Shown here in pieces: positions 20,998 through 30,088 of a stretch of DNA of 64,000 nucleotides. How positions within the stretch are numbered: the stretch's first letter is position 1; every line of letters begins with the position of its first letter. Both the position numbers and the translations under genes were made by a program. The stretch lies in assembly GCA_903851045.1 (NCBI GenBank), contig CAINNF010000015.1:32644-96643 (forward strand). The letters run 5' to 3'. The notes beneath the pieces were generated by a model that was given only the letters and a program-made list of their open reading frames with translations, was not told the DNA's origin and searched no databases. Origin of the DNA: Candidatus Adlerbacteria bacterium (GTDB lineage: Bacteria > Patescibacteriota > Minisyncoccia > Phycocordibacterales > SBAW01).

Positions 20998-22053
20998 TTA
21001 TGTTGCTATAGCCGCTTCGTGTCGTGCGCGCTCGACCATGAACCGCACCCCCTCGGACATGTTCTCTGCCTCGAGCTTGATGTCGGGATGCGCATGATGA
21101 AAGACTCGAAACACTTCGTCAGCGAATGCCTGCCCAACCGTTGGCACCTTGTCGAAGTCGAAGACGACATACTTGAACTTCTCCAGCCCCGTTAGCACAC
21201 GCCGCGCTTGGGAGCGAGAGATATGTACACCACCTATTGTATACAACTTCACGCGCACCTCGGTCTTGTCGAACCCATAGTCACTGGAGTCATCAAGGTT
21301 GGTGTACTTTTTAAATACGTCCTGCAAGTGTCGCTTGGACGTAGCCGAGAGCGTGAACGATACGCGCGTACCCCGCTTCATCTTCGACACCTTTTTCACG
21401 AACACATCTGGTGCTTTGTTGTCGACTATCAGCTGATATCCAAAACTGTCGAGGATGAACATATCAGCCACGCGCGAAGTAAAGAAGATACCTTCGCCCG
21501 AGTGCGACTTCGGCATCGTGGTTGTCTTACCTTTGAGAATATCTTGGATAGCCTCAAGTTCGGAGGCGAGGCCGCGCTGCCGCATCACGTTGCGAAACAC
21601 ACCGATGCCTGAATCTTGAATGACGAACGAGAGCGTCTTGTGGGGCACCGACACCTCGACCCCGATGCGCACTGACTGCGAGTGTTCGATAGCATTGTTG
21701 AACATCTCTGAAAACGCATACGTGAAGATACTCCGCACATTCTCAGGCAAATTCTCAAGCGTCGGGAATGCATGTTCTATCTGGTCGAGAACCTTGTGCT
21801 CTTCGAGCTGCTTGTTCGCAAAAGACTTAGCGTATCGAAGCGGCAAGATCTCTGGGTGCGCCCGAGCGTACTCGGGCAACACATAGAATGCATAGCGCGT
21901 CGCGCCAAACTTCATAAGCTGTCCATTGGCCACAAGCTCCTGGAGCAAAACGTGTATATATTGTCGCGACACGCCAAAGGAGTCTGAGAGTTCAGTCGAG
22001 GTTATCCTCCCCTTCTGCTTTGCCAAAGCAACTATATTTTCGGGTGTAATCAT
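20998..22053 (-). CDS. Winged-HTH - GHKL (histidine-kinase-like) ATPase - STAS-like (DUF4325) domain protein
   Basis: N-terminal wHTH (ITSTELSDSFGVSRQYIHVLLQEL). GHKL N-box EMFNNAIEHS, G1 IQDSGIGV, G2 SHSGEGIFF. C-terminal ...VFDFDKVPTVGQAFADEVF matches the STAS-like DUF4325 pattern. Confidence 0.7.
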   Translation of the reverse strand: MITPENIVALAKQKGRITSTELSDSFGVSRQYIHVLLQELVANGQLMKFGATRYAFYVLPEYARAHPEILPLRYAKSFANKQLEEHKVLDQIEHAFPTLENLPENVRSIFTYAFSEMFNNAIEHSQSVRIGVEVSVPHKTLSFVIQDSGIGVFRNVMRQRGLASELEAIQDILKGKTTTMPKSHSGEGIFFTSRVADMFILDSFGYQLIVDNKAPDVFVKKVSKMKRGTRVSFTLSATSKRHLQDVFKKYTNLDDSSDYGFDKTEVRVKLYTIGGVHISRSQARRVLTGLEKFKYVVFDFDKVPTVGQAFADEVFRVFHHAHPDIKLEAENMSEGVRFMVERARHEAAIAT

Positions 22054-22231: not shown

Positions 22232-24574
22232 CTATTTAGAATATAGCCCGATTTGAAAAGCGAAAAACTGCGAACGAATAGCGTCCACGTCCCCGAGTAC
22301 CTGTTCGGCGTCTGAGAGCGCATGATATTTAAGATTAAGAAGCACTGGCAACTTCTCCTCACCAAGTTCCATGTCGCCCCCCTCCTCGTACTTCTTGAGA
22401 ACAAACGACAGAAACTCTTTTTGTGCTCCGCTCACTGAATCAAGGATGGTGCTTTTGTTGCGCTCCACTCTGTCCTTTCGTGTTATTGGTCGTGTTGCGA
22501 ACGAGACATATGACAGCACATCAAACAGGTCGCTGTTTTCGGCATCAATCATTTTCTGCAACGTTTCCAACTCATCACGACCAAAACCAAGCTCGGCGAT
22601 ACGATCGAGAAATGCCTTCCGCGTTGTCGGATTTGACCAGATGTTTCGAAGCTCTTCTTCATTCTTAAAGAACTCGGGCATCGCACCAAACATATTTTGA
22701 ATAAACTCTTCGGCAGAGATTGGCTTACCGTCTGCACCCCAAAACGAAGTCGAGATCATGTACTGGATTTCTCGCTCCTTGCCGTCTCTGAGTTTGATTA
22801 TAATTTTCTTTTTCTGTTCAATAGGCTCTGGAGTTTGTTCAGGCTCTGTGTGCTCCCTGCGCTCTTTTGGCTTCTTGGGAGTACTGGGTTCCACATCCTC
22901 TGCCTCAATCGGCTCGCCATCCCACTCTGGGTCAGCGAAGTGTTTATACGCATCCACGAAATCGTAGATCGTAAAATACTCCTTACCGTCAAACAGTCGG
23001 GTGCCGCGACCGACAATCTGCTTGAACTCAATCATTGAGTTCACAGGACGCATCAAGACAATGTTTCGCACATTGCGAGCATCCACACCAGTCGACAACT
23101 TTTGCGAAGTGGTGAGAATGGTCGGAATACTCCGCTCGTTATCCTGGAATTCGCGCAAAAACTGCTCGCCGCGGGCTCCATCGTTCGCCGTGACACGGAC
23201 GCAGTAGTTCGGGTCGGTGCTGTCTTTCATCTGATTCACCAAATCGCGCACCGCGAGCGCGTGCGTCTGATTGGCACAAAAAATAATAGTCTTCTCGTCT
23301 TGGCGTATTTCATCAAGCACGATACGTACGCGCTTGGCCTCGCGCTCTTTGATCTCAATAATCCTATTAAAATCCGCTTCTTCGTATATCTTACCCTGCT
23401 CTACTTCACCCTCGACTACCTCGTCGTCCGACGTGTACACATAGTCGTCCAAGGTCGTCTGGATGCGCTTCACTTTAAACGGCGTCAGGAAGCCGTCATT
23501 GATACCCTGCTTGAGCGAGTAGGTATAGAGCGGATCACCGAAATACTTGTAGGTGTCTACATTGTCGACGCGCTTCGGGGTCGCCGTGAGACCTAGCTGT
23601 ACCGCTGGAGCAAAATAATCGAGGATGCTGCGCCAGTTGGATTCGTCGTTCGCTCCCCCACGGTGACATTCGTCGATAATAATCAAATCAAAAAAGTCTG
23701 CCGGATAATCGCCAAAATACGGCGTATTGTTTGACCCACCCTGCGGTGAGGTACTCGAACCCGTCATGAACGTCTGAAAAATAGTAAAGAATATGCTCCC
23801 GTTGGTCGGGATTGCGCCTCGCTTGCGGATCTCGAGCGGGTTAATACGTACAAGTGCATCCTCGGGAAAAGCGGCGAAAGCATTGTACGCTTGGTCTGCA
23901 AGAATATTTCGATCGGCCAAAAAGAGCACTCGCGGGCGACGCTTGCCATCGCGCTGAAGTGTCCAACGGGCTTGGAAGATCTTCCATGCGATCTGGAATG
24001 CGATAGTCGTCTTCCCCGTCCCGGTCGCGAGCGTGAGCAGGAGTCGCTTCTTGTTTTCGGCGATAGCATCGAGCGCGCGATTGATAGCAATCTCTTGGTA
24101 GTATCGCTTGCCATACTCACCCTCAAGAGGGATCGAAGCGAATGTCTCCTTCCACTGCGCCGTCTGTGACTCCTCGTGGCCAAACAGCTGCGCCCACAAC
24201 TCCTCAGGTGTTGGGAACTTCTCGACATATTCCTCCTTTCCACTCTTCATCGACACACAATAAATCTCTCGACCGTTGGTCGAATAGGTGTGCTCGATTT
24301 GGAGCTTCTCTGCGTACGCCTTCGCCTGGGCGACACCTTCGGTCGCAGGCAGGTCGAGCGCTTTCGCCTCCACCACAGCGAGCTTCTGGTTCTTGTACAC
24401 CAACACATAGTCCGCGATCTCGGGTTTGGCGCGCACGCCACCCGTCTGGATCTTGCCGTCCGTAATGCGAAACTCGCGCAACACGCGCGACCCTTCCACC
24501 TCACCCCAACCGGCTTCCTTGAGCTTAGGGTCTACGTACTCGGCTCGCGTCTCTGATTCGTTCATTAAAACCAT
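22232..24574 (-). CDS. hsdR: Type I restriction enzyme R subunit (compact, 780 aa)
   Basis: N-terminal PD-(D/E)xK nuclease motif (D...VVEAK), Walker A LATGTGKT, DECH box (IIDECHRG), helicase motif VI (QIVGRGTR). The true start may be the second ATG (MNESE). Confidence 0.9.
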   Translation of the reverse strand: MVLMNESETRAEYVDPKLKEAGWGEVEGSRVLREFRITDGKIQTGGVRAKPEIADYVLVYKNQKLAVVEAKALDLPATEGVAQAKAYAEKLQIEHTYSTNGREIYCVSMKSGKEEYVEKFPTPEELWAQLFGHEESQTAQWKETFASIPLEGEYGKRYYQEIAINRALDAIAENKKRLLLTLATGTGKTTIAFQIAWKIFQARWTLQRDGKRRPRVLFLADRNILADQAYNAFAAFPEDALVRINPLEIRKRGAIPTNGSIFFTIFQTFMTGSSTSPQGGSNNTPYFGDYPADFFDLIIIDECHRGGANDESNWRSILDYFAPAVQLGLTATPKRVDNVDTYKYFGDPLYTYSLKQGINDGFLTPFKVKRIQTTLDDYVYTSDDEVVEGEVEQGKIYEEADFNRIIEIKEREAKRVRIVLDEIRQDEKTIIFCANQTHALAVRDLVNQMKDSTDPNYCVRVTANDGARGEQFLREFQDNERSIPTILTTSQKLSTGVDARNVRNIVLMRPVNSMIEFKQIVGRGTRLFDGKEYFTIYDFVDAYKHFADPEWDGEPIEAEDVEPSTPKKPKERREHTEPEQTPEPIEQKKKIIIKLRDGKEREIQYMISTSFWGADGKPISAEEFIQNMFGAMPEFFKNEEELRNIWSNPTTRKAFLDRIAELGFGRDELETLQKMIDAENSDLFDVLSYVSFATRPITRKDRVERNKSTILDSVSGAQKEFLSFVLKKYEEGGDMELGEEKLPVLLNLKYHALSDAEQVLGDVDAIRSQFFAFQIGLYSK

Positions 24575-24629: not shown

Positions 24630-25022
24630 TTAAAAGAGATGTTTGTAGGCTGGGTAATTATTCTTAATGATCTGCTGCCACTCTGCTGTTTCGTTGTGCC
24701 CGCTGAGATCCGTCTTGGTATACACGAGCAGCACCGACACCGACTGCTGCTGCTTGTGCCACGCGACTATACAGCGATTCCCCGACGTCTTAGCAGACTC
24801 TTGTGTCCCAGCAACACGAAACTTCGTCTTGATGATCAATATATCACCAGCATCACACACCGTCTCAGCCCTGCTCGTTAAGATGAGTGCATCGATGCGC
24901 TCAAGCTCTGCCATAATCGCGAGCAACGTGACGTCCCATTTCGCCTTGTATTTCTTTGAAAAACTTTTGATAAAGTGACGCTCGGCAAACACCTCGATAT
25001 TAACAGCATTATTGCCTGGCAT
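24630..25022 (-). CDS. Putative toxin partner of the adjacent PanA-like antitoxin (130 aa; RelE/ParE-like fold suspected)
   Basis: Small basic protein 7 nt downstream of the HTH-DUF4065 gene. The ...RCIVAW...VSVLLVYTKTD pattern loosely resembles the RelE/HigB C-terminal strands. Confidence 0.4.
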   Translation of the reverse strand: MPGNNAVNIEVFAERHFIKSFSKKYKAKWDVTLLAIMAELERIDALILTSRAETVCDAGDILIIKTKFRVAGTQESAKTSGNRCIVAWHKQQQSVSVLLVYTKTDLSGHNETAEWQQIIKNNYPAYKHLF

Positions 25023-25029
25023 ATATGCG

Positions 25030-25722
25030 CTAGAACACCTCGTCGGGGTCCTCTTGGGTGATCAGTTCGTACGGAATAATTTCGTCCATGCGGCACAGCA
25101 CATAGGGCAGCTGATTGTGCGTAAACGTAACGATCTCCTGCGTCTTTTTATCTTTCCACTTCGCGGCGATCTTCTTGAGTAACGCTTGCTCTTTGGGTGA
25201 CACTGTTTGTATCTTTTCGTTCCTATTACTCTCTGACTCACCGACCAAGAACATCTCCTTTCCGTTCTCATTCTTGTGGTCGATCACGATCTTACCATCC
25301 TGCTCGAGCTCATCAAGCGCGCGAAAGAACGCATCCGGCACGGGGCCGTATGCGATCTTGCGATATGACATACCACTCATGCTCTCCATGTGCTCATAGA
25401 ACCAAGCGAAGTCCGCCAAATAGAGCAGCTTCGCGAGCTTGGTCTTGGGTATCTTACCGTCTTTCGACAGGTTCATGCGTAGATAGAGCAGCAACATCTG
25501 CTTGTACTTGGCGATGTTCGGAATATTCCCTGACAATAACTCGTCGACAGTGATACCAAACAAACTCGCCAGCTTCTGAGCTTCGTCAGTATCGAGCTTC
25601 TGCTTACCCACCTCGATGGCCGTATACGTGGGACGAGACACCCCAATAGCCTTCGCCACCTGCTCTTGGGAAAGCTTGTGGGCGACGCGAAGCTCCTTGA
25701 GCTTTCGCATATACGTATTCAT
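25030..25722 (-). CDS. HTH_XRE + DUF4065 (Panacea domain) protein; PanA/SocA/GepA-like antitoxin
   Basis: N-terminal Cro/C1 HTH (LRVAHKLSQEQVAKAIGVSRPTYTAIEVGKQ). C-terminal KTKLAKLLYLADF...AYGPVPD matches the DUF4065 signature (KLxKLLY...GPV). Start set at the internal ATG after a TM-less, low-complexity over-extension. Confidence 0.7.
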   Translation of the reverse strand: MNTYMRKLKELRVAHKLSQEQVAKAIGVSRPTYTAIEVGKQKLDTDEAQKLASLFGITVDELLSGNIPNIAKYKQMLLLYLRMNLSKDGKIPKTKLAKLLYLADFAWFYEHMESMSGMSYRKIAYGPVPDAFFRALDELEQDGKIVIDHKNENGKEMFLVGESESNRNEKIQTVSPKEQALLKKIAAKWKDKKTQEIVTFTHNQLPYVLCRMDEIIPYELITQEDPDEVF

Positions 25723-26053: not shown

Positions 26054-27244
26054 TTACAACTCCCCTGCGAATGCCTGCTGCAAAATCGACTTCTTGAGCT
26101 CATCCAAACAAGCCAACTTCTTGGCATAGATCTCCTCCAGCTTTTTGGTCTCCCCCGCCAAAGCATCCAACTTTTTAACTATCGCTTTTTGTTCTGGAAA
26201 AGGCGGCAACAGAAACTCAAAGGCAAATAGATGCTCTCGATTTACCTTTGGCATACCGGCTCTATCCGAACCCAAAATTGCATACTTAGTGAAACCAGAT
26301 GTTAATAGTAGATAATACAAAAAATCTCTATTCAATGTTTTTTCGTCGGGCAATAGAGGATATATGTCCGCACTGCACAGTCCGTCAAAATCTGGCCTAA
26401 CTACTTTCATTAAGTATGGTCGTATTTTGCTGTATAACACCATATTCTTATCAAAAATAAACTTTCCAGAAATAAGTTTTTCTTCTTTTGCTGTCTTAAC
26501 ATCAATAAGCTCTCCTGTCTTTGCTTGAATATTTCCAGCTCCAACGTGCCGCATATTTAGAAACCGCTTCTCCCTCGGGTCGACCAGTTTTGAAGCAATC
26601 GCGCACACAGTATCTAGTCGAATTAATTTCCATCCCTCCCCCGGATTAGCAAAAACACCTTGTAAATAAGACTCAAAAAGCTCGCGGGAATTCTGCAAAT
26701 TCTTTTCTGTGTTCGCTTTCGCCTTTTCAATTTTCTCAAAAACTTCATCCAGAATTTTCACAATCCTCTTTTGCTCGGTTAGGGGTGGGAGTGGAATTTC
26801 TATTTCGCCCAAATTTTTACGACTAATTCTTGTTCTTGTCGTCCCACTAGTTTTTCCTGCAACTGCATCTAAGTAGAGATTTGATTGAGAATAGTAATTA
26901 AAATATCGGGGAATAATTTTTAGTGGATCAAAACGAGCAATACTACAATCAACCGCAGTTATCATTCTTTCCCCGGTATTTGGCAAAATACATGCACGAC
27001 CTACAGGGTCGGGCAGACGAGAGATCAGGCAGTCGCCTTTAAAAATTTCGGTGCACCTCAATCTGTTAAATGTCTTTTCCGAAATATAACGCGCCTTCTC
27101 TCCCCTGTCTTTGAAAACACCGACACCTACGTTGCCGGTCTGGATAAGACGAATTCCATCTCTCGATTGATCCTTACTCTCTATCCAATTACCATCCGTA
27201 AAGACCTTACAGACTTCACCTAGTTTCTTTGTTTGTAACATCAT
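26054..27244 (-). CDS. hsdS: Type I restriction-modification specificity subunit (two TRDs)
   Basis: Conserved central and C-terminal repeats (LPPLTEQKRIVKILDEVFEKIEKAK... / LPPFPEQKAIVKKLDALAGE...). The start overlaps the upstream gene's stop as ATGA. Confidence 0.9.
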   Translation of the reverse strand: MMLQTKKLGEVCKVFTDGNWIESKDQSRDGIRLIQTGNVGVGVFKDRGEKARYISEKTFNRLRCTEIFKGDCLISRLPDPVGRACILPNTGERMITAVDCSIARFDPLKIIPRYFNYYSQSNLYLDAVAGKTSGTTRTRISRKNLGEIEIPLPPLTEQKRIVKILDEVFEKIEKAKANTEKNLQNSRELFESYLQGVFANPGEGWKLIRLDTVCAIASKLVDPREKRFLNMRHVGAGNIQAKTGELIDVKTAKEEKLISGKFIFDKNMVLYSKIRPYLMKVVRPDFDGLCSADIYPLLPDEKTLNRDFLYYLLLTSGFTKYAILGSDRAGMPKVNREHLFAFEFLLPPFPEQKAIVKKLDALAGETKKLEEIYAKKLACLDELKKSILQQAFAGEL

Positions 27245-28218
27245 ACGTATTGAGCCTTGTTTTCTTCGCAATGTTTTTTTACAAAATTAAACCAGTTTTC
27301 GTACCAATACCATGTCTTTTCAATTTCTACCCCAAACCCTTTAGACAGATCTTTTGCATTTTCGCTTTTCCAAAGCTGTGTATGTTTATGTAATCCAAAC
27401 CGGGTATACCCAATCTTGTTCATTTCGCTAACTATTTTTTTGGGCAAATATTTTGGCTTTTCTTTATCTCTAAAAGCCCAATACTCTTTATTTAGGCCTT
27501 TTGCTATTTCAGAATTTGGATCCACAAACTCTATCACCTTATCAGCTTGACCTTTTCTATTTGCAGTCTTTGGGACAAACAAGACTCTATAAGAAAATCT
27601 ACTATTATTGAACTCATCCTCAGGCAGTCCTTCATCAAACGCCTCAATATATGTGGCAATATTACTAGGAAGATCTTTATAATCTGAGAGCTGATTAATT
27701 TGTTTCTCACTTAGTGAGGAGAATTGTAAACTGAATGAAAGGTGCTTTTCGATACTTTTTTCGTTCGGAAATAATTTTTTTAGATACTCATTATAATTCA
27801 AGCAGCAAGCCTGAAATCTTGCACTTAAAAGATCGTCTATTCTTGTAGTCATCTGATGTTCGATTTCGTGCCTAAGACCTATCAGAAAAAGCAGGTTGGA
27901 CACAGCAACCCTGTCGATTGGTGATTTTTTATCATTCAAGCACCGTTCAAGTTCCCAATATTTATAAGCACCATTCTTTGTAAAATCAAACTTCCTGTTT
28001 TTGCCTTTTTGCTCAAAATACCTATATTCAATTTTCTTGCTACGATAGTACGCATGCAACAGATATGTCCACGCAATAATTGCTAGCACTATAAAAGATT
28101 CGGATTTAAACTGAATATTTGGATTATTAAAAACTTGAACAGCTGTCAATATAGACTCTTTCGATTTTAAGATTAGTTCGTCTTTGACTGAGTGAAGCTT
28201 TCTCTTTCTCTTTGCCAT
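27241..28218 (-). CDS. AT-rich hypothetical protein embedded between hsdM and hsdS; candidate HEPN-motif (Rx4H) Abi-like protein
   Basis: 325 aa at about 33% GC, 6 nt downstream of hsdM, with ATGA coupling to hsdS. Contains LIGLRHEIEHQ (R-x4-H). The HEPN assignment rests on this one motif. Confidence 0.5.
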   Translation of the reverse strand: MAKRKRKLHSVKDELILKSKESILTAVQVFNNPNIQFKSESFIVLAIIAWTYLLHAYYRSKKIEYRYFEQKGKNRKFDFTKNGAYKYWELERCLNDKKSPIDRVAVSNLLFLIGLRHEIEHQMTTRIDDLLSARFQACCLNYNEYLKKLFPNEKSIEKHLSFSLQFSSLSEKQINQLSDYKDLPSNIATYIEAFDEGLPEDEFNNSRFSYRVLFVPKTANRKGQADKVIEFVDPNSEIAKGLNKEYWAFRDKEKPKYLPKKIVSEMNKIGYTRFGLHKHTQLWKSENAKDLSKGFGVEIEKTWYWYENWFNFVKKHCEENKAQYV

Positions 28219-28224
28219 ACGGTC

Positions 28225-29688
28225 TTATATTTTTCCTCCAAGCTTACCCGTGATTACGGAAATTTCTTTATCAAGCGCTTTCATTGCTTTTAAAATCTCC
28301 TTAGGGCTGCGCAGCGTCACTTCCCCGCCTTTGTTGGGGTTCTTGACTGAGAGGTCAAAGGTTTTTGGGTCTATGTCTTTAGCGTCCACGCTCCAGGAAT
28401 TTTCGGAGTCGGCTTTGGTTTTTTGGAGCTTCACGAAGTCGGCGAGGTCGGCTTCGCTCAGTGGATTTGTTTTACCGAGGTTGCGTGGGAGGTTGAGTTG
28501 GTAGAACCACACCTTGCGGGTTGGTTTGCCTTTTTCGAAAAAGAGGACGACTGTTTTGACTCCGGCACCTTGGAAGGTCCCGCTCGGGAGGTCGAGGATG
28601 GTGTGGAGGTTGCAGTTCTCCAGCAAAAGCTTGCGCAGGCTCACCGAGGCGTTGTCGGTGTTAGAGAGGAAGGTGTTTTTGATGACGATGCCAGCGCGGC
28701 CGCCAGCGCGGAGAATTTTGATGAAGTGTTGGAGAAAGAGGAAGGCCGTCTCGCCTGTTTTGATAGGGAAGTTTTGTTGGATCTCGCTGCGGATACCCGC
28801 GCCAAACGGCGGGTTGGCGAGGACGATGTCATAGCGGTCTTTCTCTTGGATGTCGGCGATATTTTGTGCGAGGGTGTTGCCGTGCACGATGTTGGGCGCT
28901 TCGACGCCGTGGAGGATCATGTTCATCGTGCCGATGATGTAGGCGAGCGATTTTATCTCTTTGCCATAAAAAGTCTTCTTTTGGAGCGTCACCCAGTCTT
29001 TTGGTTGCAGCTTCTCGGTGTCCCCTTTCATGTAGACGAACCCTTCGGCCAAGAAGCCCGCCGAGCCGACTGCCCCGTCGTAGACGGTCTCGCCAATTTT
29101 TGGATCAACGACTTTGATGATTGTGCGGATGAGCGAGCGCGGCGTATAAAACTCGCCACCGTTGCGTCCCGCGTTGCCCATGTTCTTTATCTTGTCTTCG
29201 TAGAGGTGCGAGAGCTCATGCTTTTCGGAGTCGGTGCGGAAATGCATCGTATCGACTATGTCGAGGATGTTGCGCAGCGTATAGCCGCTCTGGATCTTAT
29301 TCTTCAACTCGCTAAATATCTCCCCTATTTTATATTCGATAGTGTCAGGACTCTCGGCACTCGCTTTAAATTTCTTGAGGTATGGGAATAGGTCACGATC
29401 GACGAACGTGTTGAGGTCGTCGCCCGAGAGTGCTTTATTGTGGTCGAGTTTGCCCTGTGGCGTCTTGGGTGCTGCCCAGACCTCCCAGCGGTACTGTGGC
29501 GCGATGATTGGTTTGTAGGCTCGGCCGGAGAGCTTCGCCGCTTTCTTCTTTTCTTCCTCCAAGTCGTCGAGGTACTTGAGGAAGAGGATCCACGACGTCT
29601 GCTCGATATAGTCGAGCTCCGTCCCCACCCCCGCGTCGCGGTGGAGTATGTCGTCTATGTTCTTAAACGCCTGCTCAAACATGTTCAA
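28225..29688 (-). CDS. hsdM: Type I R-M N6-adenine DNA methyltransferase subunit
   Basis: NPPFG catalytic motif (VLANPPFGAG), an AdoMet-binding region, and the N-terminal HsdM helical domain. Confidence 0.9.
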   Translation of the reverse strand: MNMFEQAFKNIDDILHRDAGVGTELDYIEQTSWILFLKYLDDLEEEKKKAAKLSGRAYKPIIAPQYRWEVWAAPKTPQGKLDHNKALSGDDLNTFVDRDLFPYLKKFKASAESPDTIEYKIGEIFSELKNKIQSGYTLRNILDIVDTMHFRTDSEKHELSHLYEDKIKNMGNAGRNGGEFYTPRSLIRTIIKVVDPKIGETVYDGAVGSAGFLAEGFVYMKGDTEKLQPKDWVTLQKKTFYGKEIKSLAYIIGTMNMILHGVEAPNIVHGNTLAQNIADIQEKDRYDIVLANPPFGAGIRSEIQQNFPIKTGETAFLFLQHFIKILRAGGRAGIVIKNTFLSNTDNASVSLRKLLLENCNLHTILDLPSGTFQGAGVKTVVLFFEKGKPTRKVWFYQLNLPRNLGKTNPLSEADLADFVKLQKTKADSENSWSVDAKDIDPKTFDLSVKNPNKGGEVTLRSPKEILKAMKALDKEISVITGKLGGKI

Positions 29689-29713: not shown

Positions 29714-30088
29714 CTATTCCCCCGCCAGTTCGGTGTACTTTTTGTGGTTGCCTTTGGATTTTTCTACCGGGTATTTTGCTTCGTTCTTTTGGAGTTTGTC
29801 GAGGAAGGCTTGGGAGACGTCGATGTGGAGGTCGTTGGCCATCAGGAGCACCCAGTAGAGGACGTCCGCTAACTCTTCGGCGATGTCTTTGGAGTTGGAG
29901 ATGACGTACTGCTCGATCTCCTGTGGGCTCTTCCACTGGAAGTGTTCGAGCACTTCGGCGGCCTCCAGCGTCAGCGAGATGGCGAGGTCTTTGGGGTTGT
30001 GAAACTGCTTCCAGTCTCGCGCGTCGCGAAACTCACGCACCTTCTTCGTAAGGTCTTTGATGTTCGACATATGCACATACTCTACCAA
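29714..30088 (-). CDS. MazG-like nucleotide pyrophosphohydrolase
   Basis: EAAEVLE...ELADVLYWVLLMA EExxE/D helices typical of the MazG/NTP-PPase all-alpha fold. 25 nt upstream of hsdM. Confidence 0.65.
   Translation of the reverse strand: MVEYVHMSNIKDLTKKVREFRDARDWKQFHNPKDLAISLTLEAAEVLEHFQWKSPQEIEQYVISNSKDIAEELADVLYWVLLMANDLHIDVSQAFLDKLQKNEAKYPVEKSKGNHKKYTELAGE

Follow-up and report, generated by a model that had tools for sequence, protein, structure and literature searches.

Anantharaman et al. listed DUF3644 among new HEPN families in 2013 (PMC3710099). In the same paper, the EC042_2821 family was described as a HEPN domain fused to a C-terminal domain (CTD) of about 180 amino acids (aa), named a 'novel REase' (restriction endonuclease); its members were located in restriction-modification (R-M) operons and some of them carried an N-terminal winged helix-turn-helix (wHTH) domain (PMC3710099). 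Two further systems have been studied experimentally. Namely, HEC-08 from Payne et al. was a validated HEPN defence protein labelled 'DUF3644', and mutation of its motif histidine (H128) abolished defence (10.1101/2024.01.29.577857). The Ishtar proteins Ist1 and Ist2, which were monogenic and combined HEPN with an uncharacterised C-terminal domain, cleared conjugative plasmids and acted against RP4, and one Ishtar protein was described as carrying DUF3644 (10.64898/2026.07.06.735840). Here we analysed gene X, a 325-aa open reading frame (ORF) located between hsdM and hsdS of a Type I R-M operon on the minus strand (positions 27241-28218, stop codon included) of a 64,000-nucleotide (nt) stretch from a Candidatus Adlerbacteria bacterium (GCA_903851045.1, contig CAINNF010000015.1), hereafter the window. 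Its ORF, Pfam and PADLOC matches identified it as a DUF3644 / EC042_2821-family / PDC-S19 protein. X almost certainly encodes an RNase of the HEPN type, but it is an ordinary member, recognised by automatic annotation, of a family whose description dates from 2013 and whose listing among the defence candidates dates from 2023. Our preferred reading was that X is an autonomous, self-restrained HEPN RNase defence module riding in a Type I R-M operon, and we estimated the probability of this statement as a whole at roughly 0.6.

The family membership of X was clear from two collections of models. X matched Pfam DUF3644 (PF12358) with an E-value of 4.8e-56 and a score of 189.7 bits (the cutoff was 27.6), and its residues 14-197 aligned on positions 1-182 of the 183 in the model. 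PDC-S19 is a candidate single-gene defence family of PADLOC; the match to its sub-model PDLC04948 (E = 2.8e-162) aligned residues 1-323 with the same positions of a model of 325, and seven further PDC-S19 sub-models also matched; the NCBIfam scan of X gave no family. Accordingly, a preliminary description of the gene, in which X had nothing else to recognise it by and was a possible new variant, had to be corrected on both points. Homologues numbered 6,011 in a word-indexed search. With few exceptions, the top 120 had a length of about 325 aa and an identity to X of 61-82%, and their named sources included Paceibacterota, Moranbacteria, Dysgonamonadaceae, Ratteibacteria, and Thiodiazotropha. 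An exhaustive search of 50%-identity representatives gave 1,291 clusters, and the annotation at NCBI already called relatives 'DUF3644 domain-containing protein'. A chance ORF was ruled out by the 6,011 homologues together with the strong conservation.

The link to the family of 2013 was made through Escherichia coli 042, which carried a 437-aa 'DUF3644 domain-containing protein' (WP_001222856.1). This protein is likely EC042_2821 itself, as judged from its size, annotation, and genome position rather than from the old locus tag. It matched PF12358 (5.4e-47), PDC-S19 (2.5e-68), and PF18740 'EC042_2821-like' (0.0033), and BLASTP aligned X to it over 268 residues of the HEPN and C-terminal domains (E = 6e-12) with its RDQAVH placed on the RHEIEH of X. 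On the strength of these matches, we considered X, EC042_2821, PF12358, and PDC-S19 to be one family. The E. coli 042 gene (L089:16914-19502) was the first cargo gene after the integrase on an island whose insertion site was ssrA, the gene of tmRNA, and it was followed by a DNA methyltransferase gene and by conjugation and mobilisation genes; this copy of the family lives in an experimentally tractable host. Longer relatives of X were extended at the N-terminus by 80-110 aa that included the conserved signature 'FTRPxRxINHARIxEIR', and a few of them had a further wHTH-like domain (P0143, P0219), in agreement with the 2013 description of the EC042_2821 family. In one relative of 390 aa (P0126), the first ~90 residues of HsdM (HsdM_N) were fused directly to the DUF3644 domain. 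The fusion may be an artefact (of assembly or of a frameshift), or recombination at an hsdM-X junction such as that of the window may have produced it.

The preliminary description had called X HEPN-like because of the R-x4-H string in LIGLRHEIEHQ. This string was found in X, and the predicted catalytic motif R116-H-E-I-E-H121 was encoded by positions 27856-27873 of the minus strand. However, X had three R-x4-6-H strings (at residues 4, 116, and 273), and at least one R-x4-H was present in 32% and one R-x4-6-H in 68% of the composition-matched shuffles of X. Thus, an R-x4-H string alone was not above chance and could not serve as the only evidence for HEPN. The motif at residue 116 was meaningful because it was conserved, not because it was present. 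In the alignment of 77 close relatives (A2), R116, E118, I119, E120, and H121 were invariant, while among 41 relatives with 27-73% identity (A3) invariance was limited to N31, W50, N108, R116, and H121. The residue following the motif arginine was H in X, N in P0042 and several other relatives, and D in P0143 and in the E. coli 042 protein; a polar N, D, or H at this place was the HEPN pattern (PMC3710099). The motif was also kept in the homologues that were located outside R-M loci.

The predicted structure agreed with this assignment. In the AlphaFold2 model of X, the mean pLDDT (predicted local distance difference test) was 72.7 and reached about 85-93 over residues 10-150. Four helices were modelled (residues 11-31, 38-60, 103-119, and 127-149) with an insert of about 40 residues (61-102) between the second and the third, and the motif stood where helix 3 ends and ran into the following loop. 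This four-helix topology, the insert, and the place of the motif fit the HEPN description in PMC3710099, and we delimited the predicted HEPN domain at approximately residues 10-165 (27724-28191, minus strand) from the model, the Foldseek matches, and the published topology. In the Foldseek search of the PDB, the HEPN protein 2hsb came first, with a probability of 0.80, E = 0.96, and a TM (template modelling) score of 0.61 on the target. It was followed by five further HEPN chains, including HepT (7bxo/6m6u/6m6w) and 1wol, with TM scores of 0.52-0.59, and the unrelated matches were much lower; HEPN proteins were the only consistent fold matches of the X model. Thus, the preliminary idea of a HEPN-like protein was borne out by the invariant R116 and H121 and by the predicted four-helix core, and the HEPN assignment of X can be considered well supported at the level of the model. 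The two conditions under which the preliminary description would have been refuted, a predicted structure lacking the four-helix core and homologues beyond R-M loci that had lost the motif, both came out in its favour.

The remaining half of the protein consisted of two parts. The middle region (residues 166-255; 27454-27723, minus strand) was defined by conservation, had a poorly predicted structure, and contained the YRVLFVPK...KGQADKVIEF segment. The conserved columns of alignment A2 were Y210, K217, N220, Q224, A225, D226, F231, E253, and K256. It was followed by a winged-helix-like module of 70 residues at the C-terminus (residues 256-325; 27244-27453, minus strand), which was modelled with pLDDT of 90-96 as strand-helix-helix-hairpin-helix. 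This module was rich in aromatic residues (W283, W303-Y-W-Y306, and W309); the aromatic cluster was invariant, and the whole module was doubled in tandem in P0092 and P0124. Foldseek comparison of the C-terminal model with the PDB gave nothing significant, with winged-helix proteins and phage excisionases recurring at noise level, and the profile search of the C-terminal half against PDB sequences also gave noise only (the wHTH of ArgR at E 0.3). A firm assignment of the module to either wHTH or REase was rejected since there was no significant PDB match.

The gene itself could be read directly from the sequence. Its ATG start was at 28216-28218 and was followed by an uninterrupted frame of 325 codons in total on the minus strand. 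The start codon was located 6 nt past the hsdM stop (TAA, 28225-28227), and the TGA stop of X (27241-27243) was overlapped by the ATG of hsdS (27242-27244) as ATGA. The GC content of X was 34.4%; the window as a whole had 54.6%, and hsdM and hsdR had 52.7% and 51.4%, respectively. Therefore, the preliminary description was correct about an AT-rich 325-aa ORF between hsdM and hsdS that was coupled on both sides; it did not state the strand, and it was right about the low GC content while its value of about 33% differed slightly from the measured one. Promoter and terminator scans gave no evidence of independent transcription of X, and terminator-like sites were at chance level (10 found, 8.7 expected). 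The exact X protein was already public on a metagenome scaffold at ENA (ERZ18630235 scaffold_12) as P0001, where it was shortened at the 5' end to 297 aa. We judged that this public gene call begins 28 codons too late because residues 10-28 are conserved in the homologues; the error touches positions 28135-28218 of the window, the 5' end of X.

In a scan of one genome per species, 465 species genomes had a relative of X, and the genomic context was studied in the best 80 of these (59-75% identity). These 80 loci spanned many bacterial phyla as well as methanogenic archaea, and relatives from different phyla were 59-82% identical to X. Searches by tblastn with HsdM, HsdS, and HsdR of the window under-detected the neighbours (29, 19, and 13 loci, respectively), so they were replaced by Pfam scans of the adjoining ORFs and by iterative hidden Markov models (HMMs), which gave the gene order in 79 loci. 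HsdS (Methylase_S) was the upstream neighbour in 26 of 68 loci and HsdM (N6_Mtase) in only one, whereas HsdR (HSDR_N / ResIII / SWI2_SNF2) was the downstream neighbour in about 22 of 66. The order M-S-X-R, or a truncation compatible with it, was found in 41 of 79 loci, and the gap from S to X was -8 to +11 nt in 26 M-S-X-R loci. In 10 other loci there was a methyltransferase-like gene 1-3 kb upstream of X with HsdS and HsdR undetected, two loci (L005 and L030) had Type I genes on the opposite strand only, and no Type I gene was detected in the remaining 26, at least 11 of which extended for 3 kb or more on both sides. The arrangement hsdM-X-hsdS of the window was not resolved in any of the 79 loci, with one (L053) being ambiguous. 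Thus, the place of X inside a Type I R-M operon and its tight coupling to the hsd genes, stated in the preliminary description, were confirmed, but the slot between hsdM and hsdS was not the typical one for this family, which was usually located between hsdS and hsdR. The order in the window was nevertheless shared with the closest relative (L082), whose X was 82% identical and whose operon hsdM-X-hsdS(ATGA)-Fic-hsdR was of the same EcoEI type. Between these two operons X was the best conserved protein, as HsdM was 75%, HsdR 71%, and HsdS 35% identical. The family as a whole thus rarely has the order hsdM-X-hsdS, which the window and its closest relative nevertheless have in common.

The 10 loci with an upstream methyltransferase-like gene formed a separate group. 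We scanned the ORFs downstream of X (774-804 aa) in three of them; each had a weak PglZ match, and in one of the three GmrSD was located just upstream of X. About 10 loci are thus probably candidate BREX contexts in which X would occupy the pglX-pglZ slot. In seven apparent BREX copies (L035, L042, L043, L047, L051, L058, and L066), X was preceded by a recurrent ORF, for example L043:6709-8004, that was 431-432 aa long in six loci and 509 aa in L047 and overlapped X usually by 4 nt (8 nt in L058). The L043 copy of this ORF had no Pfam match and no recurring Pfam family of upstream neighbours accounted for the others. The ORF may encode a partner confined to the BREX-like context. Other neighbours of X relatives included RhuM, Fic, AbiEii-type ATPases, Schlafen, SIR2-STAND, Abi_C, reverse transcriptase, and GmrSD. 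Relatives were also present without R-M genes: a 60.6%-identical copy was alone on a 14-kb Flavobacterium plasmid, and relatives with 72-75% identity were standalone. The gene also stood by itself on Phaeobacter plasmids, and some relatives were near conjugation genes. Moreover, relatives with 60-82% identity occurred together with different HsdR families, namely the 780-aa EcoEI type and a type of ~1,040 aa. Taken together, these contexts showed a mobile family at home in defence islands. A phage origin of the gene was rejected since phage genomes gave two weak partial matches only.

We propose the following mode of action for X. By analogy with other HEPN RNases (PrrC, RloC, HepT; PMC3710099), the HEPN domain would dimerise, and R116 and H121 would serve to cut RNA in a metal-independent way. 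We infer that the C-terminal half (approximately residues 166-325) might hold the nuclease inactive, sense a cue of infection or invasion, or do both. Activation would then stop translation and lead to abortive infection or growth arrest, providing a second line behind restriction. The benefit of embedding in the operon would lie in joint expression and joint transfer, and a physical partnership would not be obligatory. Since its relatives occur with different Type I families, probably with BREX, and alone on plasmids, we consider autonomy of the module most likely. A number of points count against this proposal. In the literature searched, there was no published experimental evidence on any member of the X subfamily, and PDC-S19, a candidate system only, was neither mentioned nor the subject of an experimental report. 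The HEPN matches from Foldseek were statistically weak, as none was at or below E 1e-3 (the best was 0.96), and the profile search of whole X against PDB sequences gave noise only (5b71 at E 0.43). The middle region had pLDDT of 30-65 in both models, so the restraining and sensing role given to the C-terminal half is conjectural. The BREX assignment rested on PglZ matches that were below the threshold of Pfam. Finally, the RNase activity, the substrate, the oligomeric state, and the trigger of X are proposals.

Alternatively, X might depend on its host system in the manner of PrrC, being kept latent by contact with the methyltransferase complex (Type I or BREX) until this complex is put out of action by an anti-restriction protein of a phage. 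The commonest slot of the family, hsdS-X-hsdR, is the one that prrC occupies in the EcoprrI locus, and the stop/start overlaps with the hsd genes suggest that the proteins are produced together. PrrC and RloC were also grouped with R-M-embedded HEPN proteins (PMC3710099). However, proteins 60-82% identical to X were found with different HsdR families, in candidate BREX loci, or with no R-M genes at all, as on the 14-kb plasmid, and X did not have the ABC-ATPase domain of PrrC, so we considered such a guard possible but doubtful. A more special version, in which X would be a dedicated sensor of anti-restriction proteins and would match PARIS or PrrC in the compact form of a single protein, seemed to us highly improbable. 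In this case, the basic, aromatic-rich C-terminal half might turn on the RNase after binding DNA mimics or on detecting that the methyltransferase complex has stalled. Type I R-M and BREX are both inhibited by DNA-mimic proteins, T7 Ocr being one example, and the sensor was suggested by the presence of X in loci of Type I and, apparently, of BREX, although nothing specifically supported it.

The target of the defence could be different as well. An Ishtar-like role against plasmids, instead of or beside a role against phages, would be compatible with the autonomous RNase module, and it was in line with the layout shared with Ishtar, with the Ishtar protein described as carrying DUF3644, and with the X relatives on plasmids and near conjugation genes. 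We regarded it as unlikely, since hhalign found no sequence relationship to Ishtar beyond the motif and the signature strings of X (WYWY, RHEIEH, and KGQAD) were absent from the homologue table of the Ishtar authors. Additionally, two homologues from this table had no PF12358 match, and the one of them that was scanned against PADLOC had no match to PDC-S19. It was very unlikely, in our estimate, that X attacks DNA also or mainly through an active DNase of the restriction endonuclease fold in its C-terminal half. Such an activity would follow the entry 'Novel REase (EC042_2821_CTD) ~180 aa' fused to the EC042_2821 HEPN (PMC3710099), and PF18740 'EC042_2821-like' was the only recurrent Pfam match of diverse C-terminal segments (5 of 39, the best at 9.9e-6). 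But X itself was below the detection of PF18740, no REase was among the fold matches, and the confidently modelled part looked winged-helix-like. An active restriction endonuclease site is also unlikely because the only positions conserved in at least 90% of the diverse segments were G, F, W, W, and Y, which include no acidic or lysine catalytic set. We gave just as little weight to X being a selfish addiction or toxin module that stabilises its operon or plasmid and has no role in defence. The HepT toxins of HepT-MNT (minimal nucleotidyltransferase) pairs, which are classic examples of toxin-antitoxin toxins, were the closest solved folds, X relatives were found on plasmids, and the operon of the window contained a separate module of the Panacea antitoxin type. 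On the other hand, no cognate antitoxin of X was evident: a Polbeta-type nucleotidyltransferase was upstream of X in only 2 of 68 loci, and the neighbours in the window were hsdM and hsdS. X was also often entirely alone, and its neighbourhoods were strongly enriched for defence genes.

The operon that carries X in the window was a Type I system encoded entirely on the minus strand. The methyltransferase gene hsdM (28225-29688) was recognised by N6_Mtase (2.5e-61) and HsdM_N, the specificity subunit gene hsdS (26054-27244) by two stretches of Methylase_S (7.3e-29), and the EcoEI-type restriction subunit gene hsdR (22232-24574) by ResIII (6.3e-37), EcoEI_R_C (5e-24), and HSDR_N_2. GC content at third codon positions (GC3) was low in X (0.33) and hsdS (0.39) and high in hsdM (0.71), hsdR (0.61), the Panacea gene (0.70), and groEL (0.81). 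The composition changed at two points, the 3' end of hsdM and the end of hsdS. Because of this low GC3 relative to the rest of the operon, which was adapted to the host, X and hsdS (26054-28218) look like a recently imported block of foreign composition, probably brought in by an exchange of the specificity subunit that carried X along. Across 75 loci, the GC content of X followed that of the host (r = 0.87) and was below the flanks in 73 of them, by about 7 points on average; the gap of 20 points in the window was larger than in any of the 75. Selection that keeps X AT-rich everywhere was ruled out since its GC follows the host, and the window was an extreme case.

A second embedded cargo was located between hsdS and hsdR of the same operon (24630-25722, minus strand). 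Its first gene (25030-25722, minus strand) encoded a 230-aa protein with HTH_3 (1.5e-16) and SocA_Panacea (1.8e-13) matches, resembling a SocA/Panacea antitoxin, and its second gene (24630-25022, minus strand) was a 130-aa ORF with no match in Pfam, NCBIfam, PADLOC, or PDB. The latter is a candidate partner toxin, possibly a novel one neutralised by the Panacea protein. In the closest relative (L082), the same slot was filled by the Fic gene. Directly after hsdR there was a gene for a 351-aa protein (20998-22053, minus strand) that combined a winged-helix region at the N-terminus, a histidine-kinase-like ATPase domain (HATPase_c), and a STAS-like DUF4325 at the C-terminus and may belong to the same defence island. 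On the other side, a gene for a MazG-like nucleotide pyrophosphohydrolase (29714-30088, minus strand; PF12643, E = 1.1e-19) was directly upstream of hsdM and stood between the groES-groEL genes and the R-M operon.

Since standard annotation (Pfam, PADLOC, and the NCBI pipeline) already labels X, the gene is routine as it stands. At the same time, it is a well-behaved example of a widespread and very conserved candidate defence gene, with relatives in the 465 species genomes mentioned above. If the trigger and the RNA target of X were shown, a function could be assigned to thousands of genes, and the same knowledge would help to explain the build-up of cargo at the hsdS-hsdR and pglX-pglZ junctions. 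In practical terms, users of public annotation should be aware that the label 'DUF3644' covers two lineages and that the public gene call of this locus is shortened at the 5' end.

Comparison with the tested HEPN systems placed X apart from each of them. Similar to X, HEC-08 was a single-gene HEPN protein with R-x4-H that was embedded in another defence system. However, hhalign of the family profile detected no sequence similarity between them. HEC-08 had no match to PF12358.13 and matched the PADLOC 'DUF3644' model PDLC01688, which X did not match; as a control, HEC-08 matched its own models at 1e-173 and 2.8e-71. Additionally, the C-terminus of HEC-08 consisted of Cys-rich zinc ribbons, whereas X had 4 Cys in total. 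Judging by these comparisons, HEC-08 and X are different lineages. The 'DUF3644' label was thus shared by two lineages, the HEC-08 type and the Pfam PF12358 type, that sequence searches did not link. The Ishtar proteins resembled X in the N-terminal HEPN, the C-terminal alpha/beta domain, the patchy distribution, and the defence-island neighbourhoods. In the rows of the Ishtar homologue table that were covered, members of that family were 164-278 aa long and DUF4145-like (RNxxEH), compared with 325 aa of X, and the demonstrated phenotype was plasmid loss. Comparison of X by hhalign with two Acinetobacter homologues from the Ishtar table gave nothing beyond the motif. Filing X under either HEC-08 or Ishtar was therefore rejected.

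PrrC and RloC shared with X the HEPN RNase (predicted in the case of X) and the place in Type I R-M operons, with the usual slot of the X family being that of prrC, and they serve as a model for a back-up to restriction. In contrast to X, they have an N-terminal ABC-ATPase domain, and Pfam and NCBIfam scans detected no NTPase family in X; moreover, PrrC depends on EcoprrI while relatives of X also occur without R-M. HepT and the minimal HEPN proteins (7bxo, 6m6u, 2hsb, and 1wol) were the best fold matches, covering X residues ~10-150 with TM scores of 0.52-0.61. These are single-domain proteins of about 125 aa that are paired with a nucleotidyltransferase antitoxin, unlike X with its 40-residue insert, its C-terminal half of 160 residues, and no MNT partner. 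The closest described system was the EC042_2821 family itself. In both it and X, the HEPN domain has the conserved R-x4-H and is continued by some 180 aa of C-terminal domain, and both are located in R-M operons. X represents the short form of 325 aa (PDLC04948) and the E. coli 042 protein a form of 437 aa (PDLC04952), with only 23% identity between them. The hsdM-X-hsdS position in the window was unusual for the EC042_2821 / DUF3644 family, and otherwise X did not differ from it in any essential way.

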